64,000 nt of DNA from Antedon mediterranea (lineage: Eukaryota; Animalia; Echinodermata): contig NC_092674.1 of NCBI RefSeq assembly GCF_964355755.1, positions 14,694,001 through 14,758,000 on the forward strand, in the 5' to 3' direction. The position numbers and the translations under genes were made by a program. Of the stretch, positions 7,108 through 46,073 are shown one piece after another (the first letter of the stretch is position 1; each line of letters opens with the position of its first letter). The notes below the pieces were generated by a model. It did not search any database and was not told the origin of the DNA. It saw only the letters and a list, made by a program, of their open reading frames with translations.

Positions 7108-8516
7108 TTCCTGAATGTGAAAGTAACAGCAATAGCCACATTTAATTGCACAATTTGCTAAAATTTCATAGCATAATTGTGTAATACGTTTAAAAGGGAC
7201 TAAATATTTCTTGGAATACTTAAAAGATAGAAATTATATAGTGGAATTTGATTAAAAGGTATAACTAGATTTATTAAATTTTGAAGACTATAAGTATTTA
7301 ATCAATATAATTTGGAAAACATATACAAAGATAATATTATAGAGAAATAGATCTTGAAATAGATGAATATACTATAAATTTGAAATAAATGTAAAAATTA
7401 GACATTTCTTTATATCTGTTTGGTGTAGAGCAATAAATTGGGAATATTTACATACAGTAAATAATAATAATATTGAAAAGAAAATTTTAAGCAGAAGTTT
7501 GATTAAAGAATATTAGACAATATTTACAAAATTACTTTTCAGAAGTAAATTTGAAGCAGAAGCTTTACAGATAAAAATTAATAAGAGAATAACAAAGCTA
7601 AAATTGACAGAAAATATTTACAGAAATACTTTCCAATAAAGTTCGAGCAGAAGCTTGAGAGAAGAAAATTAATAAGAGAATATTACAGACAAAATTTACA
7701 GCATTTCTTTGCAGAAGCAAAGTTCTAGCAGAAGCTTAAGAGAAGAGAAATAATAAGAGAACATTACAGAGAATTTTTACACAGAATTGTTTTGCAGAAG
7801 CAAATTTAAAGTAGGAGTTTGAAAGAAGAGAAATAATTATTAAAACAATTTAAAAAAAATAAGAAACACTAAAAAAAGATCTGAAAGAAATAAAAGACAA
7901 AATCACAAAATTCGAATGAGGATGAAACGTTCAAATGAAACTACACAGAATGTGGAAAAGAAACAGAAATTAAAGAAACATGATAAAGTGGATGCACAAC
8001 GAAATGAATATCAAAATGATTCTGTATATAAAGAGGATAAGAAACGTAAAAGTAAAGAGGCATACAAAATAAAATATGTTAATGACGATTCTAAATGTTA
8101 TAAAAGAAAAAGAAATAGAGAAAGACAAGAGAAAGCGTACAGATGTAATCCCAATTATAATCTCAAAATACGAAATAAGGCGAGACAAAATTACAAAATG
8201 AATTTGGATTATCGAACAACGAAAAAATTCTAAAGTGTTGAGAACTATAAAAAAAAATGAAAAATTTAGCCAAAAATTAAGAGAAACAAGGAAAAACAGA
8301 TATCACAATGATTTAATATTTAGAGAAAACTTTAAAAAAAAGAATAAACAAAACATGGCACAAAAGTATCGGAATAATTTACCATTCAGAAAAAACCTAA
8401 GTAAAAAACTAGCAGCAAAGTATCGAACTAATTCAACTTTCAGACAAAACCTGCGTAACAAACTAGCACAAAAGTATCGTAATAATTCCACATTCAGACA
8501 AAACTTGAAGCAGAGT
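7108..8516 (+). pseudogene. Helentron polyprotein N-terminal K/R-rich repeat region (degraded)
   Basis: Repeats such as KLAQKYRNNSTFRQNL; the frame continues across the 8517-21087 insertion (NLKQS|GSQRITDKHQRDIKFKQNMNRRFTNKYHSDSVFRKN); start position approximate. Confidence 0.7.
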
Positions 8517-8650
8517 GAGTGTTGACAAAGTGCGAGGCAGCGAGGCACGCCAAATATTTGTGCGAGGCATCATTTTATCATTTCCAAAAGTTCGAGGCAT
8601 GCGAGGCATATAGTTTACAATTTCAAAAAGGTGCGAGGCATATCTTAACG
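8517..8650 (+). repeat. Outer left TIR with tandem (T)GCGAGGCA motifs
   Basis: About 6 CGAGGCA motifs; inverted match to 20960-21087. Confidence 0.9.
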
Positions 8651-9532
8651 TGCTATTATGCTATATTACAGGTCTAATAATCAATCGATACAAGCGTATC
8701 TAAATAGATTCGTGTATACACTCATCATGTTGTTTATTTTTATAATATCGTGTCAAATTTTACTTTTACAAAAGTGCCCAAACTACGGTTCAAAAATCTG
8801 AACGACAGTCTTCAACTTTCGATAAACAATAATTGTTATAGCGACACACTCATCAAATGACTGCAATGTTTGTTGGCATTTCGAGCGTGTTCACTCACAT
8901 GTCTCTCGAACATAGCAGAGTGAAAATAATATTTTGTCACACCCCTGCGCCTAGATCCGGTAGACCCGAGAGATGGAAAATCCCTCTTTACTATTTAGCA
9001 GGTAGCGGGATTCAGCCCTCAGCTCAGAGGATTGTGGTGCATTCCCCTCCTATAGCACGTGGTTTCAGCAGCAACGCACAGACTTCTCTCTGAGCGGCGT
9101 GCCAAAGACATTTTTGACATTCCGTTCTCTAGGAACAACACGTGTACCTCTCTCGCAAATAAGGTGAACAGCGATTACCAGGACAAGTTCAATAACTGGC
9201 GGTGAATAAAAGGTAACTGATATGCCGATCCAATAACATGCCGCAAAGAAAAAAATTGCAACAGAATTCTGGAGCGCGTGTGAAAAAAGACTTACGTCCG
9301 ACAATTGTAATACTAGGCCTAAAATTAAACTTTAGCTAATATGCTTAGCCCTAACCTAGATAAGAGGCCTATGTAGAAAATAATTTAATCAATTTTTATA
9401 TAATAATAATTGGTGTAATATTTAATAATGATACACTATTCCTGTTTTAGTAAGCTAGGTATATTATGAACGATTTTTATTTATTGTTGTCCATGTACGT
9501 ACTAATAAACCTGGCGCTATCTTTCTTCCTTC

Positions 9533-9670
9533 GAGTGTTGACAAAGTGCGAGGCAGCGAGGCATGCGAGGCAAGCAGAATATTTGTGCGAGGCATCGTTT
9601 TATCATTTCCAAAAGTGCGAGGCATGTATTTTAAAATTTCAAAAACGCGCGAGGCATATCTTAACATGCT
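9533..9670 (+). repeat. Second (inner) left TIR of the Mutator-like element
   Basis: GAGTGTTGACAAAGTGCGAGGCAGCGAGGCA..., near-identical start to 8517. Confidence 0.9.
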
Positions 9671-10319
9671 ACTATTTATTAATAGATTTTTATAACATAG
9701 GCCTATGCTATATCATTAGAAATAAAAATGAATAAATAAATAAATATTAATCATGTTGTCAAATTATTTGTGTTCATTTTTACAACAGTGCCCTAAACTG
9801 TTCTCAAGTTGTGTGTGGATAGCTGCCATCCGTATGTGCCTTTTTTTTATTCACCGACAGTATTTCGACGATTTCTGTAGTTGCTATATACTATAGTAGA
9901 ATAATCAACCTTAAATGACTCAGTGCTTATTATTGGCATGAGGTCGTATCGGTTATCATACGGACATGCTTCGTGCTCCCAGTTTTTAAAATTTCCTCTA
10001 GAGTTACCAAAAAAGTTAAAATGTTTTGATATTTCTTTATGTACGCACGGTGCTGGTCTTTAAAGAAAACAGCACGTGTTATTAACACTGTCCGGCCATA
10101 TGCGGGAGAATATTTATTGATTATTTTTTCCTTACTTCACAATGATTTTAGTTTCATATTGGTTAGTCCGGGTAATAACCTCCAAAAGCAACCCGACCCA
10201 CCTCCCTTTTAACTTCAGCATGTATGGGAACGCAAAACCATGGCGGCGGCGAATAATGGTAACCGATATGCCGATCAAAGAACATGCCGCAAAGATTAGA
10301 AAGAGGCTAATGATTGGCG

Positions 10320-11659
10320 ATGGCGAATAAAAATGTCTGCGCGAAAGAACTCCGGAGCTCTGAAGACCGTCATTTCATAATACAAGGTCGATATCCGAAG
10401 ATGTCTAACCGGGTGTTGTGCCTTCTCGAAGCAAAAGAGCGAGGACTTACTTTGAAAGCTGACCCACCGGGGAATGAAAACCGGTGTTTTTACCAATGCT
10501 TAGCTGCACTTTTTTCGATAGAAAAAGAGGAAGTTTTTGATTTAATTCGGGACTACCTTTTACAAAATCGGTATGTCAATTCAATTGAAAATGTAAGTGT
10601 GTCGTGCTTTCAGTTTTATTTTATTAATAATATAATTATTTATTTAAATTATACTGTATTCATTCGGCGGGGATGAAATTATTGCTATTGGCTTATGGAA
10701 CGCCTGGGTGTGTTCATAATGTATTTAACATGGTCTTTATTGAGAACAAGAGGCTTAAGGAGTACCCAGGCTTATGGAGTACCCAGGCTTATGCCAGCTT
10801 TACTGACCATCCTCTTTTACTCATTGCCTAGATTAGTAGTAGCCGATTTTTTGTTTGTAAAAATCAGGGAAGAATTCAATGTATTTTAAAGGTTTCATCA
10901 ATTTTATTTCAATGTTCAATGCATAACATAGGAAAAAAACTTGAATCAAAATAAATATATATAATTAAATAAAATGAGATAATTAGTGACTTTTTAATTG
11001 AACATAGGGCACATGCAGTTAAGCAAGACCTTCTGCAATTTTTTTCAAATGCTGATTTTCCAAACTTGGAAGAATGCCCATGTACATGGGAAGATTGTGT
11101 GATAGGCCTGTGTCAGCAAATGGCTAACCATGTTGTCATTAGAGCTGCTGCAACAATATTTTGCATTAATTGTAAAATTGTTGATTGGAAAGGGGTATGT
11201 GTATAGACATTTTTGCTTTCTAAAAATTAATGTATCAAACAAATCTAAATAATAAATATAAAATTATACTTTATAGGGCATGTATTTAACATGATAAGAA
11301 ATTGTTAAAAAAATTAAATTAAAAAAATTATAATGTACAGAACAAAATTGTATTTAGTTTATTGCATTTAAACACTTTTGCTAATATCCAGACAAACTCA
11401 TCAGGCATTCTTAAATCTGTTTACTTGCTGAAAAGTAATGTTGTTTCTTTTAATTAGTTTGTTTTATTCTTGTTATCAGATTTTATTTTTAATTACTTTT
11501 TCTCTTCTTCTCAATAGAGAATGACAGTTGCAGTTCCATTTGGTAACCTTGGATGTGGAAACTCAGATGTTTACTTTGCATATACTGGGAATCATTACAT
11601 GTTGCTAACAGAAGTTGGGTGTCCAGTTGTATCCAAATGTGACGAGGGAAACCGTGCAG
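10320..11659 (+). CDS. Spliced OTU-like cysteine protease domain (exons ~10320-10570, 11008-11194, 11518-11659); 5' part of the MULE gene
   Basis: In-phase GT-AG joins give PPGNENRCFYQCL (Cys box), WEDC..QMANHVVIRAAATIFCINCKIV and VYFAYTGNHY (His box), the OTU motif order. Confidence 0.7.
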
Positions 11660-12015
11660 GTTAGTCTTAAGTTTTAGAATTTTTATCTACGATTATACTG
11701 TGTGTAATAATATTAAAAAATGTACTGACATTTCTTAAAGTCTTACAACATCCAATAGAACAGAATGAATGATATTGAGCTGAATAATATGATTGTATAG
11801 TTTATATACATTAAACACTTTTTGAATTATTTTTTTAACTATTATCTACAATTTCAAGACAGAGATTAAAAATTAGCACTGATGAAGTCAGCAAATCTTC
11901 TTAAAGTTACGAGTATTTAAAAGATAATTGTCTTATGAATTGCCTATATTTTTACTTTTTTAGGCCAACTTTAGAAATTGTTATGGGATAATATTGTATG
12001 TTTTTGTATTTACAG

Positions 12016-13641
12016 AATCTGTGGAAAAACACACAAAAACAGAGAGGCACAAAAAAGCCAAGATATTTGAGCATTTTGGTCCAGAAGAATACAATCCTGG
12101 TCTCAGTGTTTTTAAAGGCAGGGCATTAGTGGTAAATTTTGTAATTTTGTGTTTATTTGGTTTATGAATAATTGCTTTTGAAAGCCCAGATGCAGATAGG
12201 CCTATAAAATTGAAAATACTGATATAAGATGATATTGATTATGAGTTTCCAAAAACGTTTTTGTTGTTTTCTTTAAGATACAGTGTAGCTTTTAGAACAT
12301 TTACAAATGTGTCTTTTTGTTTATTAGTGTACAGTATGAATTTTTTTGGTAAATTTACCAGGAAGGAGAGAAATTAGTTTTGTATAATACAGTATGCATA
12401 CTTTTATCATATTTCTAAATACCTTATGTATTTATTTCACACATACCCACTATTGAAATATTCATAATCTGTCTTTATCTCTCGAATTTATATATTAATG
12501 TACTATATTACATTTTTTTAAATCGAAAACTTGGCTTATTTTGTATTTTCAGCTTGATGAAATATTAATATCAAGTGGAGATGAAAGTGTTTGTGATAGT
12601 GTAAATCAGGTAAGTTGCAGTAACTAATCATTGTAATTTTACAATTCATTAATACCACATCTGTACTTAAATTTGTAAATACCCTACCGTATATTTCGGT
12701 GTATAAGTCGCACCTGTGTATAAGACGCACCCCCAACTGAGAGTAAAATATCGGTATTTTTTATATCGTCGATGTATAAGACGCACCTTATATTTCATCA
12801 AAACAATGTTTTTTTAAATTGTAATCAATATTATTGTAATAATATATTTTGTTATATCTACAACGGCGTCCTTTATTTAGGTTTTTTCTTACCTAGGCTC
12901 GGCCGCGCCCAGCCTCAACAAGTTCTTTCTAACTTGTTAGTCATGAGTTTCACCGCAACATCGAGTGCATGACCGTGTAACACGCACGTGTGTGGGCTAG
13001 CCTCGCTCGATCATTTCGAGAGGGCGCACGTTTTCACGGACAATCGTATTCGATTAGTATCTGTGTATCCGAGAAGTGTGTACGCTAGGTCCATGCTATA
13101 ATCACCTGGAGAATATACTAGTCGAATACCGTACACCATGTGCCACCAAAAGAAAGGCTTGCGCTTGGGGTACGGCGATCGTGCGTATAACTACTGTATA
13201 AATACATACTATTCCAATCGTACGACGTAAACGTTTACAAATGAAATTTTATCGGAGCGCCATAATGAACAAATCTTTTCATCATATTTAGAATAACATC
13301 ATGCTAAAATGACTTGAAAACTAGGCCTAGGCAGAAGCAGGTTGCCGTTACGTTAGTTAGTTACTGTAGCTAGGCCTAGGCCTAGCCTACTCAGGCCTAG
13401 CAAACGAGGTGACGATAGCCTAGGCCTATGTACAATCTGTGTGGTGAGGCATTTATGTTCGGTGTATAAGACGCACCCTTAATTTAGAGGTCAAATTTGC
13501 GTGTCAAAAGTGCGACTTATACACCGAAATATACGGTATATAGAATTCTATTGCATTTAGGGATCATATTCAAAATATTCTACTGCAGGGCTATAATAAT
13601 ACAAAGCTAACAATTGCAGTACTGCAATGATAATTTCAGTA

Positions 13642-13672
<31 letters not shown>

Positions 13673-15201
13673 TATAGTTTGTTCGGTATTACTGCAGAAA
13701 CTGAAATATAGTCATTTGGATATGATCCCTAATTATTTAGCATTTATCCCAATTTAAGAAAATGATAAAACTGTATAATATTCCCCTACATCAATGCAAA
13801 CCATTTTGGTCAATATAAATAATAAATACTAAAAACCTATGCCTACTATACTTATCCAAACATGTTATACATTCTTTTTTACACTAAACTACATTCCTAT
13901 TGGTTGTTCAAATATAATTATTTGAAATACAATAATGTTGTGAATTTAAATGTTTTATCGTTGCAGAATGGGAATGATATTGTTTTAATTACCAGTGAAT
14001 CAGAAGATGAGGTAAGTTTAAAAACTGATCAGAACTAAGGAGATTAAGTAGGGGAAGACGGGTTGCCTTTAGATTCGCAATGCATAGCATGGTCAAGTTG
14101 AAAACCTATATACTTTGATTTTCTTTACCATTACTATTAGTTCGCAGTAAATACTTTTGGCAGAAAAAAAACACAAGAGATTTTAATACAGATGATAGTC
14201 AAGATGATACTTTAGGTCAATTGAAGGTTAAGATAATGTTTTTCTAATTTAAATTTTACTAAACTACTGTGCTTTTTAGTCACTTTTGTAGCCTACCTAG
14301 TGTATCTTAGACTAGGCTACCAAAAAGTCTGAAGATGCATTAATTTATTTATTCATTCATACATTTATTCGTGAAGACATTATTGTCAATAAATTTAATT
14401 GAAATAGTTAGGTTGGCAATTGCCACCTATCCTAACTTGCATGTTTTTATAAACAGTAACAATAACCAAAAAATAATAATTATTTATATTCAAGCAAAGC
14501 TAAAATAAACTTAACTTAACTCATCATGTAATGTTATGCTCTATTCATAATATATTGTCATGTAACAGTAACTATCAATATTTAAAATGTGTTTTTGTGT
14601 AGGACACCATACGTAATTCTACTGTAATTTCAAGCAGCTCAGACGATTTACCACCTCTAAGTCTCGGTGATAACAAAGGCAAATAAAAAAAAACGGAAAA
14701 GAAGAAAAACAGAAAATTTTGTAAGTTTATTGATTATACAGTTTTAAATAATGATATATTAAAAACTTCATTCATACTTGGTGATATTTTTGTCACCCTA
14801 AACTGCTTTAATAATATATTTCAGAGTTCCCTCACATATCCAACTTTAATGTTTAAGTTAAGAATTCTTAGTATTGTATTTGCCTCCAAAAACAATATTT
14901 TTTCTTTCTGTAATTGGCAATCATCATCAGGAATCTTAAAAAATAAATTAAAAAATTAGAGTTTAGAATTTTAAAATTATTTTACAAATTAGAATATGTT
15001 TTTAAATGCATGTATTACAAATTCAGTGATGTGTTAAAATAAAGCGAATGTGTGTTTCTTATTTGCTTTCTAGAAAAAGTCCATTGACATTCTGACAAGT
15101 ACGATGAGTGGTTTAAGCTCGGCTGAGTGTACACCAATAAAAAAAAAACCAAAACAATGCAAAAAGGAAGAATGGCACACAGATGTATTGGAAGAAAAAA
15201 A
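12016..15201 (+). CDS. Small linker exons of the MULE gene (12016-12131, 13967-14011, 14141-14226*, 14603-14720*, 15074-15201; * = frameshift or stop)
   Basis: AG/GT boundaries with polypyrimidine tracts; phases are consistent from exon 3 through to the last exon; acidic and basic low-complexity peptides. Confidence 0.55.
12687..13536. mobile_element. pogo/Tc1-mariner-type MITE
   Basis: TIR CCGTATATTTCGGTGTATAAGTCGCAC; TA TSD; near-identical inverted copy at 59413-60265. Confidence 0.92.
13560..13729. mobile_element. Small palindromic MITE (Harbinger-like TTA/TAA flanks) containing (TAT)n
   Basis: GGGATCATATTCAAA ... TTTGGATATGATCCC ends. Confidence 0.55.
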
Positions 15202-15292
15202 GTAAGTTAGTAAAGTAAAAGTTAGACTGCATGGATTAAGAATTTGCCTACAAATAAATAAATACGTAACTGAATGTTATTTACTTTTACAG

Positions 15293-17696
15293 AGATGAGA
15301 TACTAATAAAGAGGGGCTCAAGAGTGTACTTGAATCAAAATGAGGTTGACAAGTTAAAGGCAGAACGAGTAAACAAAGTACCTGATACACCTAATGGAAA
15401 TTTAAGGTATGAAGTTTCCTACAATGAAAACAAACCTCTTATTGGAATCTATGACACATGGAATTGGAGTCGGTCACAACACTGTCCCAGGCGTGAATTT
15501 TGTAAGGGAGGACGACGAACCTTACAGATGTGTGGAGGATCATTTGAATGTAGAAATGTTAAATGTGCATTCAGAAACATAAACCAACATTCTAATAAAG
15601 CAGATTTTAACAGAAGTAAGCATTGTAAACATTGTAATCAAGAAGCAACAAAAATCAAATGCTCTGCCAGAAAGTATGTTGAAAATGATCGTTGTCATAA
15701 CAAATTGACTGTGATTTATATTGGTTTTCATTCCTGCTTTCCAAAAGCTGCTGAAGAAAAGCCCAATGAGGAGGAAGTCAAAGACATTCTAAAACAAAGA
15801 CCAACAATAACAACTGGTCAAATTCAGTTAGAAAAAATTCGACAGGTTTTATTAGATGGTAAAAGTGATAGCAATTCTCTAGAAGATGCGGCTATGAAAT
15901 TTAGTGACACACGTCATCTCCATTATCTTAAAAGTAAGGTTAATGAAAAATCCAGACCAGATGGTTCAGATATTGAAGCTATACGCCTACTTAAAGAAGA
16001 TTTTTGTAAGCGGGGTTTAGATGAAAATTTAATCATGGAAGTTGGTGAAAACTCTGTTTTTCTGTCCAGTGAACAAAAAATTCGTATGGCAGCTCTCATT
16101 ACTCTTGGTAAAATAAATGAACCAGTTAGCCTTGATGGGTGCGAAAGTCTTACAAAAGATTACACAGAAATTGAGCTGACAACATATAATCCTGTTTTGA
16201 GACGGAATGTTAAACTTGTTAGTAGTTTCGTTCCAAAACCTGGTGAAAATTCAGAAAATGTGGCGAGGCTAGTGAGATACTTTGATAAAGCTGTAAACAA
16301 AATTATACCTTCTGTAGCTCTTGAATACAACCTTAAAGCCAATGACTTTCTGGGTAAAGGTCTAGATGCCCATGCCTATGTTGGAGATGAGGGAGGAGCT
16401 CTGTGGTCAGGTCTTTGCAAAGCCAAAGGTAATGATATTAAGACAAAAACTGTTTCAGATTACTTTAATTTTAAGCAAGATATAAATCGGCACAATGTTT
16501 ACTTCAGCTCTGAAAAAGACAAATCTAAATTTCAACAATTTATGGTTGATGCTTATAATGCTGTTACAAATGTTCATGCTGAAGAAGCAGAGACAGCACT
16601 GTTGAAACTAATTTCTACAAAATCTAATAACCCTACAAAAATGATGAACTTTAAGAATTGGTGGTGGAGACGAAAAGCACGTTGGCAGAAGTGGTGTAGA
16701 ATACAATCAAGTAGCTTAGCCTCTTCAGCCGAAGTTTCCAATGCAAAATCTGTTAGTGCATCAGGTTACAGAAAAAGGCTATTGGATGTTGTTATTATGG
16801 AGTGTTCAGCTGCCATTTTAGAGACGGCAGAAATAAAGCGACAGGCTCTTGGTAGAAAAACAATTGGTAAGGGACCCACATCAGCTGAAAGAAGGGAAAA
16901 GAGTGACCAAGAACTGTTTGTTGACATAGATAGGTGTGCATCAGCTGCTCAAGACATTGAAAGACGTCAATCTGAGATACAGGGTGTTGGTTCGATTGAA
17001 ATGGCACAAAATGATTACAGAGTAAATGTTAAAGATAGCCATAGGTCAGATAGAAATAGGAAAGTGCCACAAGCAAGACGAGTTGAGAAGAAAAATCTTG
17101 GTTTTTTCATGAAGAAGGTGAACAATGTTCAGATGGACTTAATGGCAAGTAACAGTAATATTAATGAATTTAATTTTATGATTTTTGACACAATGGGCTA
17201 CTTGGAAAAAATAAAGATGACAAAATATATTGCTACCTGCACATCCATTGGTTGCAAGAGTGGATGTCATCATTTAGTTTGGGTATTTCACAACATTTTC
17301 AATTTTGGAAAACACGATCACTTGATTTACAAAACAAAATTCACACAAGCAGAATGGAAAGAGATAACAAATAAATACCCTGAAAAATTACCAATAACAC
17401 AAATTCCAAAAGCCGTAAATCAAAATTATTACATTAATGTTCGAACTGGATCAAAAGAAGCGAAGTGTGCGATTTGCAAAAGGATACTTCAGTCTGGGGA
17501 CTTGCAAGCTAGTACCACAGGTCCTTATAGAACCATACAACGAAGGTGGATTTCGCGTACCTTTTATTTTTGTCCATGTATTGCTTGCATGTCTAAATTG
17601 CCTAGAAACTCGTACATTAGTACTTATAACTCACCAACAATGCCACTGTACTTTGATGAAAATTTAACAGAATCTCAAAAACAAAGCATTAATTAA
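15293..17696 (+). CDS. Mutator-like transposase, last large exon: GCM-like Zn DNA-binding domain, DDE core, SWIM finger, C-terminal Cys finger
   Basis: 790-aa open frame. WNW..CGGSFEC.N..C..CKHC..IKC..YIGFHSC is GCM/WRKY-like; D in SLDGC (16134), D in VGDEGG (16386), E in SSAEVSNA (16731); SWIM-like CTSIGCKSGCHHLVWV; CAIC...FYFCPCIAC. Confidence 0.8.
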
Positions 17697-19248
17697 CAAC
17701 ATAAAACCAGACTGATTTACAACAGAAAACACTGTTTTTGTTTTGTTCTTTTTCTAATGCAATTTTAAAGCTAAATGTTATTAATAAACTATTATTTTTA
17801 TGCTACAATATTTAAATGTATCTTATCTTTTATGGCAATCTCTCACAATGTGTAATCTTAAAAGTTGAACTAGAAACAATATACATATAAAAATTGATTA
17901 TCTATCTATCATGGCATGTTGGTTATAATAATATGTTTAACCCTGTGTTACACAGTGTAGTATTATGTTTGACATAGAAAGTATTATATTCACTTATTGA
18001 ACTGATTTAATGTAAATATTTGTAAAACAAAGGAAAAAAAACTTTTATTTAAATCAACAATTATATGAAAAATGGTGTTTTATTTGTTCTTTTCATTTTG
18101 GTAACATTCATTAAGATGATTTTGATTGTTTTATAATTTTACAATATGTTGTTTGTTTTCAATTAAAAGGGAGATTTTTCCGTATTAAACACTTGTTTAT
18201 AATTTGTTTAACAGTAATATGCAGTATTTTAGTTGTTCTTTGGTTTTATTATTTTATAAATCGGTCATTTTTTAAACTTAAATTTTGTTCATCAAATATA
18301 GGTCCTACAGTTATGTTATAGGTCTCTGTTGAAAAATGAGGACTACATAGGAAAATTTGGTTAAGTTATAAAGGAAAGATTATATCTTTGGATAAATATA
18401 TATAATTAATGAAACTTGATCAACAGTGTTTTTTTTTCTTTACATTGTAATTTTAAATTGTTTAATCCGTATTGTCAAATTTATACTACTCCTACAAATA
18501 ACTTCCGAAACAGGTCAATATGTTCACACTAACAAATTAGATCGGCGATAAACGTTAGAAGAATACACAATGATAACCGATCTGCTGTTCTCCTATTAAA
18601 GGCACTATGGGCGTGCCATAAATAATCTTGTTTGTTATTGCTGAAATTCATCGTTTTTAACATAAAACCGCACGATTTTTGCGATAAAACTTGGGTTTTA
18701 TTAATTAATGAACAATTATCTACCCTTCTTTGGTGGGTATTCGCAACATTCTGGGCCTCATTTTTGGTCTCGTATGGTGATTATTAGGGCCCTCTTGGGC
18801 TTGGTTCTGAATTACTATTCTGGCAGTCTAGACAGGGTATAGGCTTTGATATGCATTTTATAAGCATAAACAGACCTTTTTTCCCCCAAACTTTCTTTTC
18901 AGAGAGACTATGGGGTAGTAGTAATACTAATACTCTATAAACTACAATATTGTTAAAATATAGGGCCTAAAACATTACCGTAAATGATCTTAATTAGCCG
19001 CGCAGCCGGCCACACGAGCGAATGATATAAACAAATGACACCCTCTGTTGGTCGTTTTGCGAATGCACACTAAACACAGTTTTCGAAATAATAAAATGCA
19101 TAATTTATGATATAATTACATTTTTTTGTAATTTATTTTATATATTATATCGAAAACATTTGCAATATCAATGAAATATGTTATAAAACACCTTTAAAAA
19201 CTTTTTGGTTTGGACTATAAAGTAAGACGTTCGGTCCTAAGTAGGACG

Positions 19249-20919
19249 CAGCCGCGTAACAAGGGGGTCTTGTCAGGGGGGGGGGCAAAGAGGGCCTGAT
19301 CCTTCCCGACACCAAGTACTTGAGCCACAGCCCCCCCATGGTGGGGGCTGTGGCGAAGCGAATTTTGGTAAATGACACCCCTAGATCGTCGGAAATGGTA
19401 CTCTCGCACATAAAATTCATGATAAATGGCGCCTCCAACTATTAGTAGTTGGCCTGGAAATAACACTCCAATTTATTGCACAGCAATCAGCAAAATGATC
19501 GTACATTTTCCACCGTTAAAAACACAGGTGACATAACATTTGAACATGTGAAAACCCAATCTAACATTGGATACGCACCTGGCAAAGGTAGCAATTTTTC
19601 CGGTTAGAAGACTGAAACAGGGCTGTAACCAGGTTTGACGGCGGGGTGGATCGTTAAGTTGTTTAGTGGAACCATACCCTCGAATTTTTTTTTCTCTAAA
19701 GGCCTATGTATGGCCGCAAATCGCATTTCCGGCTAATCTCTTTTGTTTATGAACTATATAATTTGGTGTAATTTCCAGCCCACGAATTTCAATTGCCGAC
19801 CTTATTGCCGACCTTAAATTGTCAGAAGACGGCATTCTCTTGCCGACCACCGAAACAATAGGCTAGATCCCTCCAGGCTCCCTTTAAGCCTCCTAGCAAC
19901 AACATGGTACATTAAGGGATCGTATCATTGAGACTTTAACAGGCATATTCACCATCATGTGGTGTTTAGGTAACAAACCATGGAATTAAGATGATCCCTG
20001 AATTCACTCAACCATTGCATCTTGCACTTGTGTGAGCTGCATGCTTTCTCTCTATACTATCAAGCAGCTGGCTGGGCACGTCACACGCAGCAGAGACCTG
20101 TGTAGGGGAATACCCTTTTATTTCAAGCAAACAACTATGCTCTGTGTACGGCTAGCTCCAGAACCACGATGTTCAGCAGTTATGAAATAGAATTTATCTT
20201 GTAAATTTAGTGTTAGGTTTTTATATCTTAGTTAAAATATACTTTATATTCTTATGTCGATTTATATTAATTAAATTTATTAAGGCTTGACTAGGCCTGT
20301 AGTAAACAATCGTAGTGTTGTGTTAGTATGCCCAGAAAAAAAAGTGGGAGGCCAAGCGGAACTCGCTGTTCAGCAGGGGATACGATTCCCCCGATTCCCC
20401 CCCCCCCCCCCAGGTTACGGGCCTGTGAAAGATTGAGTATTGGAGCGACAGCCAGCCACGAAAGTACGTTCGTTTTGCTGATCGCTAGCGTGTTACATAC
20501 GATCAGTAGGAGTGTATTTTTTTAAGGTGGCCTCACACCCACAGCACAGCGTCACAATTGTGTATGAGATGCCCGCGATGGCGGCTTAGATAAAAGACGC
20601 CAAAAACCACAGTCAACTGACCGCATGTTAATGTACTGATAAGCAGTGCGTCTTCCCACGAGTTGTCAGTCAGGATGTTGTGTATTTCATATCATCTTAC
20701 TTGAATATCATACTGTACTGTACTGTGACTCATTTGAAGCCATATCATATATCGTATATTTTATTCTTATCTTATATTTTCTTTCTTTTCTTTCTTCTAT
20801 CCCTTCTTTGTATTTTATTTTTTTGACTTGTTACCCAGCCCGATCGAACGCTTCTCAACCCGGTAAAATCCGCCAGGGGGGTATTCCGCCCCCCCTGCCC
20901 CCCGCCTGTTACGCCACTG
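19249..20919. mobile_element. hAT-like non-autonomous element
   Basis: Ends CAGCCGCGTAACA / TGTTACGCCACTG; 8-bp TSD GTAGGACG / GTGGGACG (1 mismatch); G/C-rich subterminal tracts. Confidence 0.75.
19618..20425. mobile_element. CAG-terminated MITE with 5-bp TSD, nested in the hAT MITE
   Basis: CAGGGCTGTAACC / GGTTACGGGCCTG; TGAAA on both sides (19613-19617 and 20426-20430). Confidence 0.7.
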
Positions 20920-20959
20920 GTGGGACGAACGTCTCCAGGGCCGAATTTTTTGTTGAATT

Positions 20960-21087
20960 TCATGCCTCGCACTTTTGGGAAATAATAAAATGGTGCCTCG
21001 CATTTTTTGGTGACGGTAAAACGATGCCTCGCATAAATATTTGACTTGCCTCGCTTGCCTCGCGTGCCTCGCACTTTGTTACTACCC
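20960..21087 (-). repeat. Right TIR of the Mutator-like element
   Basis: Six TGCCTCG motifs, ending CACTTTGTTACTACCC and followed by the TSD. Confidence 0.9.
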
Positions 21088-21096
21088 AAGCAGAGT

Positions 21097-24000
21097 GGTA
21101 GTCAAAGGATTACAGACAAACATCAGAGAGATATAAAATTCAAACAAAACATGAATCGAAGATTTACAAACAAATATCATAGTGATTCAGTGTTCCGAAA
21201 AAATGTTATGAATTTCAAATGAGAGGAAGTCCACATGTTCATATGTTGGTATGGGTCGAAAATGCTCCTGTTTTTAATGAAGATGAAGATAAGAAAGTTA
21301 TTGAATTTATTGATAAATATATTTTTTGTTCTGTGCCATATCAAACTGTAGATCCTGAAATGAATGCAATTGTCACCAGTGTGCAGATTCATAGTAAAAG
21401 ATATTCAAAATCGTGTAAAAAAAAGGGAACGAATTGCAGATTCAACTTCCCTAGACAGCCTTCTGAAAGAACATTTGTTATGAGACCTACAATTGTGGAT
21501 AAAAACAATGATGATGATAATGATGATGTTCATGCAAATAAACAAGCGCAAGAATTATTATCGTCAGTAAAAGATGCTTTAACTAAGGAACAAACGTTTG
21601 AAAGTGCGAAAGAACTTTTTAAAAGTTTAAATATTACCCAGAGTGTATATGAGGAAGCAAATAATTGTATAACTACTGAAGAAAAAATTGTTTTAAAGAG
21701 AAACCCTTCAGATGTCTGGGTAAATCAATACAATCCTTCTTTATTGAGAGCATGGAATGCTAATATGGATATTCAGTATATTACCAGTGTATATGCATGT
21801 GTTACGTATGTTATAGGATATATGTCAAAATCTGAACGGGAAATGGGCTTACTTTTATCTCATGCAGCAACAGAAGTGAAAGAAGGAAATGAAAATGCCA
21901 GACAAAGCTTAAGTAAACTTGGTCATGTGTACATGAATAATAGAGAAGTGTCGGCGCAAGAAAGTGTTTATCGTGTTTGTAGTTTAAGATTAAAAGAATG
22001 TTCAAGAAAAGTTGAATTTATCCCAGTAGGACCTAATCCTGTTAGAATGAGTTTACCACTAAGTGTAATTAAAAACAGTGGATGATAATCAAAGTGCGTG
22101 GTTGCCAAATAAATTAGACAAATATAAAGCTCGACCAAATAGTTCTGAATTTAATACAATGTGTCTTGCAACATTTTGTTCTTATTATAGAATATTAAGT
22201 ACATCAGAAATGAAAGGAAAAGCGCAAAGAAAGAACGTATTTCAATTACAAAAGCAATTAGGATTTGTCCAAAAAAGAACAAGGTCTGAAAATGCTATGG
22301 TACCCTCGGTTTCCAATGAATACAGCATCTGAAAAATATTATATGAGTATATTGCAGTTATTTTTGCCATTTCCGACTTTTAAAACATATCAAGAATTTT
22401 ATGAGCTAGGATCAGTCAAATTGTATGGCTGTAAATTACAAAAAGTAAATGAAATAGTTAATAAAAATATGGAAAAGTATGACAAAAGCGCAGACGAAAT
22501 TGAACATGCAGAAGGGGTTTTAGCCAAATTTGGACCACAAGAAGATGCATGGGGCCTATTATGTCCGGAAAGTGAAAGAGAAAGGTTAGAAAATCCAAAG
22601 CCAAATGTAGACGTTGATGATGAAGAAAATGAATTTTCCGTTCCAGATTTTGGGCTTAAAAAAAATGAAACTTTTACAATAGAGTGTAATTTATCTAACA
22701 TTTCAAGACCAGAATTAAACAAAATGATTCGATCTTTAAATGAACAACAACAAAAAATATTTTATAAGACAAGACAATGGTGCTTAGATAAAGTTAATGG
22801 AAAACAACCTGAATCGTTTTATACTTTTATAACTGGAGGTGCTGGCACTGGAAAAAGTCACTTGGTTAATTGTATTTATAATGAAGCAACACATATTCTT
22901 GGAAAAATTATGGAAAATCCGGACGATTTGTCAATACTAAACCTAGCTCCTACAGGAATCGCAGCATATAATATTAAAGGTCACACCATTCATAGTGCTT
23001 TGTCTATTCCCATTCATATTTCACTTCCATATCAACCACTTGGGGAAGAAAAAATAAGTGCACTTCGTAATCAGTTGGGTCAATTGCAAATTGTTATTAT
23101 AGATGAAATATCAATGGTCAATCAAAAGTTACTTTGGTATATCCATGGACGACTACGGCAAATAAAACAAGTGCGTAATGATAGTCCATTTGGTAATATT
23201 TCAATAATTGCAGTTGGTGATTTTTATCAGTTACCGCCTGTTAAAGGTACTTCTTTATATAAAGAAAGTTTGGAAAGCTCATTGTGGAAAAATAACTTCA
23301 CAAAGGTTGAGTTAGATGAAATCATGAGACAAAAAGAAGACAAAGAATTTGCTGTATTATTAAACAAACTACGTACAAAGGAAAAAAGGGACTGTTTGTC
23401 TGATACCGATTTATCTATTTTAAAATCACGTGAAACAGGTGAACAATGTGAAGATGGTGTTCATATATACCCATGCAATAAGCAAGTTAATGAATGGAAT
23501 GAGAAAATGTTGCATAAAACCTGTACAGATAACATATGCATTGAAGCAGAAGATATTATTGTGAACAGCAAGAAACAAGACAAGCACTGTGGTAAACCTC
23601 GAAAATCACTTCAAACTAATTTACTAAATTATTTGTGGATTGCACTTAATGCCAGAGTGATGTTGATTAAAAATGTAGATGTTAAAAAAGGTTTGACAAA
23701 TGGATGTATTGGACATGTTGAAGGAATAATTAAGCCTAGTCAAAACGCTAAACCAATATCAATTAATGTGAAATTTGATAACAATGACATTGGTATTCAA
23801 GCAATTAAAATGTTTCAAGAATCTATTGGACAAAAATACAGTCGTAAGCAATTTCCCCTCAAATTAGCATATGCATGCACAGTTCATAAAGTGCAAGGAA
23901 TGACAATGGATAAAGCATTGGTTTGTCTTAAAAAAACGTTTGCGCCTGGACAAGCATATGTAGGTCTTAGTCGTGTTACATCAATATCTGGACTTAGCAT

Positions 24001-24184
24001 TGAACATGTTAATCCTAAGTTGATTTATTGTAATCCAAACATAAAGGAATATTTAAGCAATATGAATTCATACATACAATGTGATAAAGCAGTTAAAGAG
24101 CTGGCATCTAAATTTTGTATAATGTTACATAACATTGTTTATGAATTCTAGTATCATATGTCTAACTGAAACATGGCTAAATAA
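21097..24184 (+). pseudogene. Helentron Rep (HUH) plus PIF1-family helicase, with frameshifts
   Basis: EFQMRGSPHVH (Rep motif 2), YVIGYMSK (motif 3), GGAGTGKS, DEISMV, GDFYQLPPV, TVHKVQG, GQAYVGLSR; frameshifts near 22080, 22310 and 24140; endonuclease begins at CLTETWL. Confidence 0.95.
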
Positions 24185-24330
24185 AGCCTATTTTCCACTA
24201 GGCGAATTTGTTCGCGCGAATAATATATTTTCGCGGCGAAAAAATTCGCGCTACCTTTTACTTATTTTCCACGCGAGAGCGCATGACTTTGCGATTTTGA
24301 CTGTAGGCCTATGGTGATTAACATTACAGG

Positions 24331-25631
24331 ATGCCGGCTGTTAATTTAAGAAACCTTCTTTTAATCAAAATTAAGTTGTTAAGGCTTTTATTAATTCGAA
24401 GACAGAAACAACGAAGAATAAAATACAGAAAGAGGTTTTGGGTTAGACCGATTTACAGTGAAAGAGAACAAAAAGGAGAATACCACCTGTTAGTTAAAGA
24501 ATTGAAGCTGTATGACGCAGAGTACTTTTTTAGATGCTTTCGAATGTCACCAACAACGTTTGAGGAACTTTTGAGTTTGATTGCACCATTTATAACGAAA
24601 CAAGATACTAAATTAAGGAAATCCATCGGTCCCAGTGAGAGATTAAGTGTTTTCTTAAGATACTTAGTAACAGGCGATGCACAAGTCACAATTGCTGCAA
24701 GCTATGTATGAGTATGAGTCCATCGGTAGTTGGAAGAATAATTGATGAGATGTGTGGTGCTATATGGACAGTCCTAAAAGAGAAAGGCTTCATCAAACAT
24801 CCATCAACAGAGGAAGAGTGGAAAGGTATTTCTAATGAATTTTTCGAGTCATGGAATTTTCTCAACTGTGTTGGGTCTATAGACGGGAAGCATGTAGTGA
24901 TGCAAGCACCTAATAATTCAGGCTCATCATATTTTAATTACAAGAAAACCTTTAGTATTGTACTTATGGCGGTTTGTGATGCGAACTATAAATTTACTTT
25001 AGTAGACATTGGAGACAGTGGACGTCAGAGTGATGGTAGTGTATATGGATGTAGTTATTTGGGACATGCTATAGAGAATAACTTGCTCAACATTCCAGCT
25101 CGAGAGATGCTCCCAAATTCAGACAAAACATTGCCCTATGTGTTTGTTGGAGACGATGCTTTTGGATTAAAGAAGCATATGATGAAACCCTATCCTTCTT
25201 CACATTTAGAAACTGATCAACGAGTGTTTAACTATAGGCTGTCGAGAGCACGAAGAGTCATCGAAAACACCTTTGGTATAGCTGCAAGCAGATTTCGCAT
25301 TCTGAGGCCAATTATTGCCAAAGTACGGAAGGTTGTGCTCATAACGCAGTCTATTGTCGTTCTTCACAATTTCCTAATGAAACAAAATGCATCAAATGGT
25401 AATAAATATTGCCCATTACAATTTGTTGACAATGATGGGCCAACAGGGGTAACGCCAGGTGAATGGAGGCAAGATACCGATATTACTTTGCACGGTGGTC
25501 TACAATCGATACGTCGGATAGGTTCGAACAACTATTCCAAGGATGCTGCTGCCGTCAGAAATGATTATAAAGATTATTTTTACAATGAAGGCGCTGTACA
25601 ATGGCAATGGGGATTAGTTAACCGAACTTAA
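24331..25631 (+). pseudogene. Harbinger DDE transposase (HARBI1-like) with one frameshift near 24705
   Basis: FRMS..TF, GSIDGKHV, YFNYKK, GRQSDG, VGDDAF, FNYRLSRARRVIENTFG, LHNF. Confidence 0.93.
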
Positions 25632-25921
25632 AGAAATACAGTCGGTTTAATATAAAGGAAATCAATACTGTTACATCAATCCGATTTAATTAAAATGTAA
25701 ATAACGGTTTTTGTAGACGTATACAGTATAATACTTATTTGCACTATATAAATAACACTAAACAAATAATTATTTGTTTTAATTACAGTATACTATCCGA
25801 TCCGATTCAATTGAAATGTAAATAACAGTTTTCGTATACAGTATATAATTATTTGCAAAGACGCATTAAATGTTATTAGTAAATGGTAACATTAACAGTT
25901 CTTATGTTAAATATGTCTGTT

Positions 25922-26830
25922 TTACTCCTCGAATTCTATATCAAAAAGCAATTGGCTTATTTTAACCATAGCGAGTCGTTGTCTTCGGCGGTCAAATGCT
26001 GAAACAATTGGGATAAGGCTCCTGAAATGTAGAGCGACTTCATCTTCCTGTTGATTCGAACCCGATATCAAAGAATTAATGGCTTCCGATGTCGTTTCCA
26101 GTTGGTTTATTATCATTGTATCAAGTTCGTCATGTTGCTTTTTCCGTTTTATCGGTACTTGTGGTATCGTCGACACACAGGGATTAATATTCTCTTCATT
26201 AGAAGCATGCCTGGTAGTAGTACCACTACTTGTAGCTTGACAGTTGCTGACAGTTGGCTTGTTGGCTGTTTTTTCATGCAGAAATCTCATCTGTTCAAAA
26301 TACTTGCATTTCGGTAAAGACGTAGCGGCTGCCCCAGACCGTATCATTGAATTTCTCTTGTTTAGGCACTTCTTTAGTGTGTCAAATTATACCGAATTAA
26401 TACTTTAACTTTAATTTTTGTAGGCCTACCTACACGCGAGTAATTTATCCAAAATTGAAAATGGAATGTTCGAATAGGCCTGCCTGCGAGTAGGCTTGCT
26501 AGATAGAGTAGCCTAGGCCTAGCTAGTAGATTAGACCTAGGCTAGCTAGGCATGGCATACTAATTTAATATTAAGATATAGGGGCCTAGGCCTAGCATAG
26601 TTGTAGGCCTAGTCTAACCTAGTCCTAGTAGCCTAGTAGGCTCTACGCCTAGGTTAGCTAGGCTTACTTAGAGTTTGTTTTTACCTTCTCTATTGAAAAT
26701 TTCTCCTATTGTTTTCCAGGCGTTAACTTTAATTGCACGGTTTTTATACTGTTCAGAGTTAACATCCCACAGACATTTGTGTTTTCTGACTTCTTCTATG
26801 AAGAGTTCTTTGTTAAACAGACCTAGGCTT
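25922..26830 (-). CDS. Harbinger accessory MADF/SANT DNA-binding protein (spliced; start not fixed)
   Basis: Minus-strand exon ~26680-26820 FNKELFIEEVRKHKCLWDVNSEQYKNRAIKVNAW; exon 25922-26380 KYFEQMRFL...BESS-like LAMVKISQLLFDIEF. Confidence 0.8.
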
Positions 26831-27251
26831 AGGCCTAAGCTTTCCTCCTCTGCTGGTGGTGGACTGCATGACTCCTGTGGCTGGGGTCCTGTCCCGACGA
26901 CTACGACGCCTGCTTCTGTTGCTCCAGTGCCGGTAGGTCTAGGCCTATTAGTATTTGGCCTAGGCCTAATTCTGTCTCTTCTAGATCTTTCACAGCACCA
27001 TCAATTGTCGGGGGGGCCGCCAGACGATTTGTTGACAACTCATTTCTCGAGCAGCTCTGTGATTGGTTGAGAAGTTTTCGCTTCACAAAAAGTAGAAACA
27101 ATTCGAACTAGTAAATTTCGCTGAAGCGAAAAATCAAAGGAACTAGAATTCGTCGAAGAAGGGAGTATGACAGACAGAAACTCGAATACGCATGCGCATA
27201 GCATGACGCTTTCGATTCGCGCGAACAAATTCGCCTAGTGGAAAATAGGCT

Positions 27252-27791
27252 TAAGGATGATGATTTGTTTGACTTAATTATAGATCCGTATAAATTGTAT
27301 CACAAAACAAGGTATGACTCATATTCTAAAAGAAATGATATCACTCTAAAATTAAAAAATCAGGCTCATGGTGGCGTTGCAGTCTATACCAAGAACAAAT
27401 TTACAAGCAGGTTAGATATACGTATTGACGACATAGAGGTAATTTCATTTGTAATAACATGTCCAATTTCAGTTGCTGTGTCAGTAATTTATAGACCTCC
27501 AAGCTATGATATTAAAACATTTTGTTACAATTTGAGGAAATTAGTAAACAGTTAAATAAATTAAGTACAAAATGTATCATAATGGGTGACTTTAATGAAA
27601 ATCTTTTTAAACAACCTTCTAGAGTGAATGATATAATGTTAGACAATGGGTATCAACAACATGTTACATGTTCTACTACTGAAAGTAATACATTGATTGA
27701 TCATGTTTATAGCAAAGGCCTAGATTCAATACAAGCAGAAGTAATTCCAATCTATTACAGTTATCATGAAGCCATTCAAATAACTTTTTGA
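27252..27791 (+). pseudogene. Helentron AP-type endonuclease (C-terminal part)
   Basis: Rejoins in frame as WLN|KDDD; GGVAVY, IYRPP, MGDFN, TLIDHVY, YSYHEAI; frameshift near 27550. Confidence 0.9.
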
Positions 27792-30968: not shown

Positions 30969-33900
30969 TAGTCCAGTCCCTAAGGGGAGAAAAAGGGGTG
31001 GGATGTTACCAGACTGGATACAAATTTTTCAGTATAGCAGTTTGGTAGAGTATAGTGTGGAGATGCCAAAACAAAGTTACTGGAAATCTGATTTGACCTC
31101 TGTGACCTCTGACCTCAATTTTTATATTTTTCTATTATATAAATAATAATCGCCATATCTTGACAACGCAGAGACATTTTACATTTATTTTTTTTTCAAA
31201 ATGCTTGGAAGATATATATTTATGTTCGCTATAATGAAAATAATTGTACAAAAATGGCCGCAAAGACTTTATTTTTCAGTTTGACCTTTGACCTTGATTG
31301 CCTAATATCTCAATAACACGCAATCTCAGAGATTTGAGAATGGGCTCAAAATGTTAAGAAAATAAATCTAATATTTAGTCTAATAGAAACTTTTTTCAAA
31401 AAATTACCATAAATTAAGCTTTTTTGACCCTTGACCTCTAATGTTTGAATATGTCAATATCTCGGTAACTATTTGTCCTAAAAAGTTCAGTTTGGTGTCA
31501 AATTGTTTATAATATACACATTTATATTTGCTCTAACAAAATATTTTGTCAGAATTCAATTGGAAATGTCATTTTGAGCTATGACCCATCGTTTTGCATA
31601 TATTTAGCAATTAATATTTAATAATCTATAAAAAGAGATCGAGAGAGGGGAGGGGGTTGGGGTGGATGGAGAGACACATATTTTTGTTACATGTTACACA
31701 AATGTTAAACTCTGTCTACACTATAACATTTTTATGCGACAAAAAAATGTGATGTGCCCATATATGGACACGATGAATGACATATCACTACCATATTTGG
31801 GCACATCACACCTTTTTTGTTAAACTAGTTTATAGTGTAGACAAACATGTAAAAAATATGTCTCTCCATCACCCCAACCACCTCCCCCTCTCTCGCTTTT
31901 CCAATGCTACTGCATGCATCTATACACATCAAAATGACCGGAATTGTACTGGAAAGTTTTTAGCTACATTTGAAAATAAGTCCCAGAGGATGGGTGTATT
32001 GTAATGTTATCAGAATTATGGCAATTGTTTGTAATGGGAAAGTTTTAAAACTACATTTGAAATATTTGCTAATAATATCACATGCTATTAAAGATATACT
32101 TATTTTCCCCCTGACAAAAGTAATTTTGACAAATATTTTTGTTGAATATGCAATTTTAATGTCACACATAATAGTTTCACCAAAAATTGGATTGAAAAAA
32201 AATGATATAGTGCATACCCAAAAAAACTGTAATTCAAAGCAAAAAATAGGCTGGAAGTCAATAGGGGTTCACATGGAACTATGTCTAGAAGAAGTGGATT
32301 TAACAATTTTCTACTAACTGGACTAACCTTGACAAATCCCGTTCTTTGGTACAATTATGTCTAGTTAATTAAATTTCATAAAATCCTGGTATTGGAGATT
32401 TTAAATGCTATTTTATGTAAAAAAAAATCATCTATTTCTTTTATTTATCCCGTATGTTGTTTACTTTTAACTTCTGATTACAAACAATTGGTCATTTTAC
32501 TTTCTGTGTTAAATTTTGTATTCTATTTTTCAGTATAGTAAATATTTTAGGCCTACCATCTTCTAATATCTAATTAGACCTCTGTCCTCGTCATTTAATT
32601 TTTTAGGACATTTTATGGGGTACACAATGAAGAATGACCATATTCTTTGCAATTCAAATGTTAAATATGAAAATGAAATGGGTTACAAAATTCTTCAATT
32701 TCATTGGTGCAAATGAGGCTAAAGGCCACCCGCTGGGTTGTTAATTGGATTACCCTCATAAAATAACTGGCTATCCTTGGATTTACTTCTAAATCCAAGC
32801 AGCAATAATTGTCCAGAAAAAAAACATCATCCGGACATAATTGAGCGTTCACATCCAAATTATGGCGAGATCATGTAGATAATCTACTTAAATTAACTAG
32901 CCATAGTGCGATGTGAACGCCACTATTGTGATTTTGGTTAAATTAACTGTTTATTTTGTCTTTAAAGTGATATTTACTCTATTTTTTAAATTAGCTCTTT
33001 GATTAAACACCTCTTCCAATGTCTTGTCTTACTAATCTTCCTTAACTTCTCTTTGAACGATCGTAATCAATATTTGTTGAGGTATAATATTTCCCTCTAA
33101 TATGGTAATGCCTGTTTTATTGAGTCAAATGCTTTCTGATAATCTCTAAATCAAAGATTTGGTGATATTCATTTCCTTTTTATTTTAGTTGATTGACAAA
33201 CTGTATAAGATGGTCCTACTGTATAAAGCCTTATATATTGGTTTATTTACTTCTAGTCGGTCTCTGATTTTGTTTTTTGATTACTTTTGTAAATTATTTG
33301 TGTACATGTGATAATGTTCGTTTGGTCGGTAATGGTTGATATCAGTTTTGTCATGTTTTTGTGGATTAAAGTATAATTATCATTGCTTCTCTTAATTTCT
33401 TCTGGTTTCAAAGATTTTGTTAGTGTTATGAGCTGGATGTGTTATTGCCTCATTAAGCCAAGATGGTAATTTTGACTGCTCACTGGTTTGTTTTCCTTTT
33501 ATATTCCACTACAAATGTTCTTGAAAAGAAATCAGCTTTGTAATTAATTTGTCTTTGATCCTTTTCAGATTTCTAATATTTTAAACATATGTTTTTCTTT
33601 TCTTCGCTTTTTCCTCACTGTTTCAAACATTTCATTTTTTCAGCATACTTCAAGCAATTAATTGATAATTAGGTCATATGTTTATGAGTATCAAATCGCA
33701 TTGGTTAATTCTTCTTTTCTTTCTTTAAGATCCTGATTTTCATTTTTTTTTTTATTGTTATTTAACTTTTAAGTTTATCTAATTTTTTGTTGATATTAAG
33801 TGTTGCTCTTACGGTGTAGGCCTACCATGCGATGGAATTATATATTGAAATTAAATTAAACATTAAGTTTTAAGAAAATTGTAAAAGGCTAAATAGGATA

Positions 33901-44875: not shown

Positions 44876-45140
44876 AATATTAACTCATGTACCGTAGTTA
44901 TCTCATTCACTTTAGCAGTCTGTGGTCAATCATCTTAGTCTGTATATTTTACATTATGGTTTGTTGGTCAAATAAATGAGAATAAAAATGAAAATAATTT
45001 TACGATAGTATTTTTGTTTATTGGTCGCTTGTTTACACCAAAGATTCTTTTTTCGCAATAAAATAAATTAATATACTGCCCTCTTTAGTTACATTCTAAC
45101 AATAGAGTTGCCATTTCTGTCATTTTATGCCTATTATATG

Positions 45141-45807: not shown

Positions 45808-46073
45808 TATATATATTAATATATTCGCATTATTTGGAGGCCCACGGCAATGCAGAGGCATTATTTAGCCGTTTTTAGCATAGGCCCCCTAATCTGGCAT
45901 AATTTTATGTTTTTTTAATTGAACAGCCAAAAAATTAATATACCAAAGAAAAATAATATTATGGTATGTATGTATATAAAATATGTATCATTATTTCGAT
46001 TAAATCAACGTTAAAAATGACAGAGTGAAGGGATTGCAACAAATTATGGAACGCCGTTTACGCAAGTTTAGGC

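Follow-up and report, generated by a model that had tools for sequence, protein, structure and literature searches.

A Mutator-like transposon of the crinoid Antedon mediterranea with a predicted OTU domain joined to its transposase

Introduction

Transposases that carry an OTU domain have been described among Mutator-like elements (MULEs), and so have MULEs with a GCM domain (PMC1702500, PMC6446971, PMC3164196). Here, we analyze a MULE in a stretch of 64,000 nucleotides from the crinoid Antedon mediterranea (NC_092674.1, positions 14,694,001 to 14,758,000, forward strand; hereafter the window, to which all coordinates refer). In the product of its gene, a predicted OTU domain precedes the transposase. 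An earlier, sequence-only reading did not recognize this arrangement from described families; the novelty was overstated in view of the published elements.

In Medicago, MULE transposases combine a WRKY-GCM1-fold domain, a DDE core, a SWIM finger, and an OTU domain in one protein, as is predicted for the window element, but they come from a plant, carry the OTU domain at the C terminus, and possess an insert-type DNA-binding domain with a single zinc (Babu et al. 2006, PMC1702500). MuDR-6_HM from Hydra (group 14; Table 1 of Dupeyron et al. 2019, PMC6446971) is likewise an animal MULE with one open reading frame listed with an “Ovarian Tumour Gene”. Compared by its description only, it differs in its length of 5,227 bp and in being listed without terminal inverted repeats (TIRs) or a zinc finger, and the position of its OTU domain is not given. 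MuDRF elements of Basidiomycota and Naegleria, which carry GCM and DDE domains (Cantu et al. 2011, PMC3164196), share with the window element the MuDR branch, a two-zinc DNA-binding domain (GCM in MuDRF) combined with a DDE core, and a target-site duplication (TSD) of 9 bp; by their description, however, they are not mentioned to have a protease or SWIM finger in the part of the paper available, and the family of the window element has no GCM profile match.

Ubiquitin-related modules are also known from other transposons. Ginger1 elements, animal DNA transposons whose genes contain introns, carry either OTU or Ulp1 as a module, and a role of the ubiquitin pathway in their transposition has been proposed (PMC2836005). 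They differ in their Gypsy-integrase core, their 4-bp CCGG/CCGT target, and the C-terminal position of the protease; the 9-bp TSD, the MULE core, and the N-terminal OTU domain rule out that the window element belongs to Ginger1. Helentrons carry OTU and VTD domains as interchangeable deubiquitinase modules but are rolling-circle elements (PMC9741609, PMC6431247). The VTD deubiquitinases of Helitrons were shown to be active (PMC9741609), and deubiquitination has already been proposed as the role of transposon-borne OTU and Ulp1 domains (PMC2836005, PMC9741609). The available parts of PMC6431247, PMC5751038, and PMC6875170 provided nothing further.

No description of an N-terminal OTU domain on the two-zinc MULE clade was found in the literature, a search that left Repbase/Dfam and most subscription papers outside its scope, and this widespread version appears to be undescribed. 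Two UniRef entries from Porites evermanni and P. lobata (P0208 and P0210) belong to the same subfamily and share its architecture at 50% identity; their name, “OTU domain-containing protein”, is automatic, and the records do not call them transposases. The novelty is moderate and lies in the clade-wide N-terminal OTU slot, the splice evidence, and the SUMO-interaction-like motifs of the linker.

Gene structure of the Antedon element

The element is a Mutator-like transposon of 12,571 bp (8517-21087), flanked by a perfect 9-bp TSD; TSDs of MULEs measure 8-11 bp, most often 9 bp. Its gene consists of nine coding exons (Table 1), where the sequence-only reading had proposed seven. The single product, about 1,150 residues long, has a disordered linker between the predicted OTU domain and the DDE transposase. 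Contigs of sample X5, which is taken as RNA because of its splice joints, show six GT..AG joints (11194-11518, 11659-12016, 12131-12553, 12609-13967, 14011-14603, and 15201-15293), and a seventh (14720-15074) fits with a one-base shift, so that seven of the eight introns of the model are represented. The 3' introns are crossed unbroken by DNA-like runs. The exons of the earlier chain do join in phase, but those at 12553-12609 and 14603-14720 had been missed, the donor of exon 1 had been misplaced, and the final exon encodes 800 residues rather than 790.

Homology to relatives starts at the Met of 10401. The donor of exon 1 was placed at 10593 by gap-free alignment to a crinoid relative (Anneissia, P0018): the domain of the window aligns over 159 columns with 0 gaps, compared with 7 gap letters for the join proposed earlier. 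Moreover, base 11013 is missing in X5, which brings exon 2 into phase with this donor. An end of exon 1 at 10570 merely offsets the additional base in exon 2 of the window copy; 10592 is the most likely end.

Several points weigh against this gene model. X5 is a single run whose kind was guessed as RNA, with no run recorded as RNA, and its contigs are not proof of a single transcript. The joint between exons 1 and 2, which links the catalytic Cys to the rest, is absent from the joints listed in X5, and the contig with the joint between exons 2 and 3 keeps the end of intron 1. X5 also contains broken variants (deletions of 10146-10410 and 10617-11342; indels at 10558 and 12125), so the spliced pieces are not assignable to one intact copy.

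The OTU-transposase fusion across relatives

The fusion is supported by comparison with other species. The product of the nine-exon model aligns to P0208 of Porites in one piece (residues 29-945, 933 columns, 50% identity), and gene models join the OTU domain to the same transposase also in Anneissia (P0018), Paramuricea (P0033), and the second Porites protein (P0210). It is highly improbable that the OTU exons derive from an independent passenger gene or from part of the surrounding Helitron and that the fusion is an artefact of the gene model. Helitrons do carry OTU domains (PMC6431247), the exon 1-2 joint was not seen, and the database protein of A. mediterranea (P0001), which is 100% identical to the last two exons, is annotated as “uncharacterized” and begins in exon 8 without an OTU domain. 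Against this stand the joints that connect exon 2 to exon 9 without interruption, the location of these exons inside the TIRs, OTU exons included, and the same fusion in the models of four other species and in distant metagenome gene calls.

A search of representatives yielded 467 relatives of the transposase at E<=0.001, the best 150 of which were listed. Pfam was run on 33 long, distant relatives that had been picked by length; it recognized a kinase in two of them and an OTU domain in five, two of the latter exceeding the curated cut-off. A profile built from the five Pfam-positive proteins found 12 more and missed both the window and P0018; a joint profile detected OTU in 20 of the 29 non-redundant proteins whose N terminus is extended by at least 120 amino acids (five cluster duplicates dropped), 14 of these 20 having helped to build that profile. 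The distant relatives are gene calls from ENA, JGI, or Logan, taken as uninterrupted frames. Since OTU-bearing rows occupy many separate branches of a quick transposase tree (42 rows), the domain may be either an old feature with losses or a repeated gain. OTU is absent from 9 of the 29 relatives, and P0124 lacks both Cys and His, which implies that the domain is dispensable in parts of the clade.

Other searches were negative. None of 55 pattern matches in viral contigs was confirmed as a relative, and 23 metagenome loci, most with little upstream DNA, showed no OTU exon upstream, apart from one weak exon-4-like match in L001. A search with residues 1-170 of P0018 recovered only P0018 itself; its sensitivity is low, because P0033 was missed though in range.

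In two distant relatives, P0098 and P0111, a Ser/Thr kinase (Pfam E 1e-29 to 1e-35) takes the place that OTU occupies in other members. The second domain of P0098 and of P0099, also a distant relative, has Cys and Asp-x-His that resemble, by eye, those of tegument-type (VTD) deubiquitinases; searches gave no match. P0153 (2,001 residues) has an OTU domain and apparent further copies of the zinc domain ahead of the transposase. The same OTU domain is present in P0193 of Actinostola (39-47% identity, His strand missing), whose C-terminal part lies outside this transposase family and resembles, by eye, another SWIM-bearing transposase; this is either a portable module or a chimeric model.

The predicted OTU domain

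Structure prediction supports an OTU fold of the N-terminal domain. An AlphaFold2 model of residues 1-168 of P0018, whose domain is 59% identical to that of the window, reached a pLDDT of 91 and a pTM of 0.86, and all nine Foldseek matches in the PDB at E<=0.001 were OTU domains, led by OTUD3, OTUD5, and OTUD1. In a fold search of a viral library, OTU domains of large DNA viruses came out on top. The features of the single sequence in the Atlas scored 0.93 to OTU clusters, and the family profile matched OTUB2 (E 1.5e-8). The domain of the window type and that of the distant relatives matched each other in HHalign (91.9%). No complete row of alignment A4 lacks the catalytic Cys, and the His is kept wherever a row covers it. 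The OTU-like domain of the sequence-only reading, split over three exons, is supported.

Other observations weigh against this assignment. The fold was modeled for P0018 and not for the window, and distant OTU rows in the underlying alignment would bias it towards an OTU fold. Pfam found no OTU match in the window, P0018, P0033, or P0208; at E<=1, the window was not detected by the profile built on the five distant relatives, and the enlarged OTU profile reached it with E 0.007. The Cys loop is unusual in the subfamily of the window, and the position two residues after the His is Met in the window, P0018, and P0208, which makes the third triad residue non-canonical; most distant relatives have Asp. 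The third residue of the OTU triad at this position is usually Asp or Asn, which is not universal.

These deviations, and the loss of Cys and His in P0124, would also fit a catalytically weak or dead OTU fold retained as a ubiquitin-binding module. This is improbable, considering that Cys and His persist in the above rows across deep branches and that Met at the same position occurs in a solved viral OTU (7y5m).

The transposase part

The last exon encodes the hallmarks of a MULE transposase, whose identity is supported by conserved residues and profile similarities. The DDE triad is conserved in 62 of 66 (first D), 56 of 60 (second D), and 44 of 46 rows (E). A C/D-x-x-H motif after the second Asp, reportedly a mark of Mutator elements and MULEs, is present throughout the family (C or D in 58 of 58 rows, H in 57 of 58). 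In the Atlas, P0001 falls with MULE clusters, with a feature score of 0.93 and, for structure, a TM of up to 0.70 relative to the shorter protein. A SWIM finger behind the core is frequent in MULEs but not obligatory. Among solved structures, the family profile matched the SWIM domain of MEKK1 (E 4e-4) and weakly a bacterial Mutator transposase (6xg8, E 0.078). Pfam gave nothing useful for the transposase on the frames of the window; among 75 family members, it found weak MULE matches in 5, SWIM in 6, and weak WRKY matches in 7. A single-sequence fold of the transposase had a pLDDT of 32 and yielded no usable model, and Rfam had no match in the window.

The DDE residues, the Cys/His domain, and the SWIM finger named in the sequence-only reading are all conserved in the family alignment, and of the domain matches it anticipated, those to OTU, Mutator (weakly), and SWIM were recovered. 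In GCM proteins, a zinc ribbon is inserted into a WRKY-GCM1 fold (PMC1702500). Each of the eight zinc ligands is present in at least 56 of 57 to 64 rows, which makes the GCM label of that reading plausible, but no GCM match was obtained with the family profile, with Pfam, or with a profile of the zinc domain against solved structures. With only weak WRKY matches, “GCM-like” is thus a call by pattern, based on an order of the eight ligands that we take to be that of GCM. A profile of the terminal Cys4 finger had no match among solved structures, and a PARP-type identity is an unsupported guess.

The linker and its motifs

Exons 5 to 7 are short and encode hydrophobic-then-acidic motifs that resemble SUMO-interacting motifs (SIMs), followed by a basic run. 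A SIM is a short hydrophobic core next to Ser or acidic residues by which SUMO is bound. A broad SIM pattern occurs twice in the linker of the window (shuffle p 0.003), nine times in P0018, and twice in P0033; that of P0208 has one such motif by eye. At least one match was found in 8 of 21 linkers, compared with a shuffle mean of 2.1 (1 of 1000 shuffles reached 8), and the other 13 have none. The pattern was fixed after the sequences had been seen; with a stricter version, p was 0.07 in the window. As SUMO docking sites, the motifs are a lead only.

The linker also bears on the possibility that the OTU domain acts as a processing protease and releases itself or the linker from the transposase, like the viral OTU-fold proteases in polyproteins. 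Self-processing has been suggested for the OTU domain of the Medicago MULEs (PMC1702500), viral OTU domains are among the fold matches, and crinoid and coral share a short, conserved SGLSS motif ahead of the transposase. However, neither the window model nor P0208 has a Gly-Gly in the linker, and the best fold matches are cellular deubiquitinases, which leaves self-processing about as improbable as an inactive domain, if not slightly more so.

Ends, insertion site, and condition of the window copy

The limits of the element stood as first proposed: identical 9-mers at 8508-8516 and 21088-21096 (a chance match at fixed places has a probability of about 1e-5, given the base composition) enclose TIRs of about 140 bp that consist of GCGAGGCA repeats. 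Within the 64-kb window, this 8-mer occurs 11 times in forward and 6 times in reverse orientation, always in the ends of the element, and L008, a relative with 59% identity, ends in the same TIR motif. There are two left ends; in the simplest reading, an older non-autonomous copy would have enclosed or adjoined the element, which later moved via the outer end. A repeat (88%) is common to the filler behind the outer TIR (9198-9249) and the region just before the first ATG (10245-10295). Long unbranched contigs in X1 suggest that the element has few copies; depth does not equal copy number.

Removal of the element with one copy of the duplication restores an unbroken, Helitron-like, repeat-rich frame from 8202, upstream of Helitron Rep and Pif1 fragments, which identifies a Helitron as the insertion target. 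At the 5' frames of this Helitron lie coding-like tandem repeats of 81-91 bp and 54 bp (7515-8504), and the transposon is inserted at the end of the 54-bp array. The insertion in intron 5 belongs to a MITE-like repeat of very high copy number and is 97% identical to a second copy at 59411-60267. High-depth repeats are also nested in the 3' non-coding part of the element (18282-20451).

Table 1. Features of the transposon and its surroundings (window coordinates)
Feature	Position	Strand	Basis or remarks
Coding exon 1	10320..10592	+	Start 10320 or 10401; OTU catalytic Cys codon 10485-10487; donor at 10593 inferred
Coding exon 2, OTU helical part	11008..11194	+	Joint to exon 3 in X5; extra base 11013 in window copy
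Coding exon 3, OTU His codon 11593-11595	11518..11659	+	X5 shows GT..AG at both joints
Coding exon 4, conserved as far as corals	12016..12131	+	X5 joints; alignment to coral model
Coding exon 5, 57 nt, SIM-like motif	12553..12609	+	Both joints in X5; motif scan
Coding exon 6, 45 nt, SIM-like motif	13967..14011	+	X5 joints; motif scan
Coding exon 7, Ser/acidic stretch, then basic NLS-like run	14603..14720	+	Stop and extra base 14685-14686 in window copy
Coding exon 8, conserved SGLSS motif	15074..15201	+	Database model P0001 begins here
Coding exon 9, two-zinc DNA-binding domain, DDE core, SWIM, terminal Cys4 finger	15293..17696	+	X5 contig 15293-17836 gap-free
WRKY-GCM1-fold-like domain, 8 Cys/His ligands, GCM-like by pattern	15465..15737	+	Ligand pattern
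DDE triad D 16134, D 16386, E 16731; D-x-x-H 16458-16469	16134..16733	+	Alignment; 6xg8 match
SWIM finger	17238..17273	+	MEKK1 SWIM match; alignment
Terminal Cys4 zinc-finger-like motif	17466..17589	+	Conserved in alignment A7
Left TSD, 9 bp	8508..8516		Same letters as 21088-21096
Right TSD	21088..21096		Same letters as 8508-8516
Outer left TIR with GCGAGGCA repeats	8517..8659	+	About 76-82% alike to right TIR and inner copy
Filler, high-copy repeat sequence between two left ends	8660..9520		Contig depth hundreds to thousands; loose ends at 9519
Inner second left TIR, without own TSD	9533..9675	+	82% identity to outer left TIR
Right TIR	20962..21087	-	3' end of relative L008 shares motif and terminus
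MITE-like insertion in intron 5	12685..13538		Skipped in samples X1, X6, X8; 97% copy at 59411-60267
Host Helitron split by element	7844..24151	+	Repeat-rich 5' frames; Rep fragment 21186; Pif1 helicase 22262

The window copy is broken at three sites, by mutation or assembly error, and would itself yield no working protein. The additional base at 11013 (window versus X5) causes a frameshift, a stop and an extra base occur at 14685-14686, and the His of the D-x-x-H motif, kept in all but one of the aligned rows, is replaced by Asn at 16467. As written, the reading frame meets its first stop at residue 95. All four runs compared read otherwise at 14685 and at 16467, and variants without the lesions of the window exist in other samples. 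Over the last exon, the X5 contig is gap-free and differs by 10 substitutions; the 8 listed give no stop.

The Harbinger/PIF element at 24184-27252, directly after the Helitron helicase frame, has perfect TIRs of 38 bp, a DDE_Tnp_4 transposase on the plus strand, and a MADF protein on the minus strand. The window further contains fragments of non-LTR retrotransposons on both strands (46450-48639; endonuclease match), a Gypsy-like fragment with reverse transcriptase (RT), RNase H, and integrase zinc finger (52941-54476, minus strand), and Penelope-like fragments with RT and GIY-YIG (60936-62484, plus strand). Five long inverted-repeat pairs (31042-34518, 39155-40142, 42752-50799, 44186-44855, and 56133-56730) are probably other TIR elements.

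Possible role of the OTU domain in transposition

By established MULE biology, the zinc domain would bind the repeated TIR motif, the DDE core would cut and paste the element, and a 9-bp staggered cut would give rise to the target duplication. Judging from the basic run in exon 7, the protein may be nuclear, and its hydrophobic-acidic motifs may dock it on SUMO. The OTU domain, if active and acting in cis, probably removes ubiquitin from the transposase or from its complex with DNA and would thereby spare it degradation by the host, an anti-degradation role that we infer. The active VTDs of Helitrons are a precedent for transposon-borne deubiquitinases (PMC9741609). A point against the role is that, according to the same paper, OTU domains of transposons had not been assayed.

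The predicted OTU domain could instead act on ubiquitin of host chromatin or repair proteins at excision and target sites, as proposed for the proteases of Ginger and Mutator elements (PMC2836005). It is fused to a DNA-binding protein, and the kinases in the same slot of 2 of 33 scanned relatives fit signalling better than self-protection. This reading is rather unlikely; protection of the transposase in cis is preferred.

It is a speculative and, on present grounds, doubtful extension that the element represents an undescribed clade of marine-invertebrate MULEs with GCM-like two-zinc domains and a swappable N-terminal “counter-modification” slot (OTU, Ser/Thr kinase, or tegument-type protease-like). 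The OTU domain and tandem SIM micro-exons of the window subfamily would then form a SUMO-targeted deubiquitinase that defeats SUMO- and ubiquitin-dependent control of transposons, and the clade would link transposases to the GCM transcription factors of animals.

Implications

The family is a large clade of animal MULEs that is missed by Pfam and by the annotation of this genome (P0001). Domains that cleave ubiquitin or SUMO recur on unrelated transposons, yet according to PMC9741609, assays of their OTU domains are lacking. The clade offers small, confidently folding natural OTU domains, splice evidence, and sister lineages in which the module has been swapped or lost, which makes it testable what transposons gain from deubiquitination.

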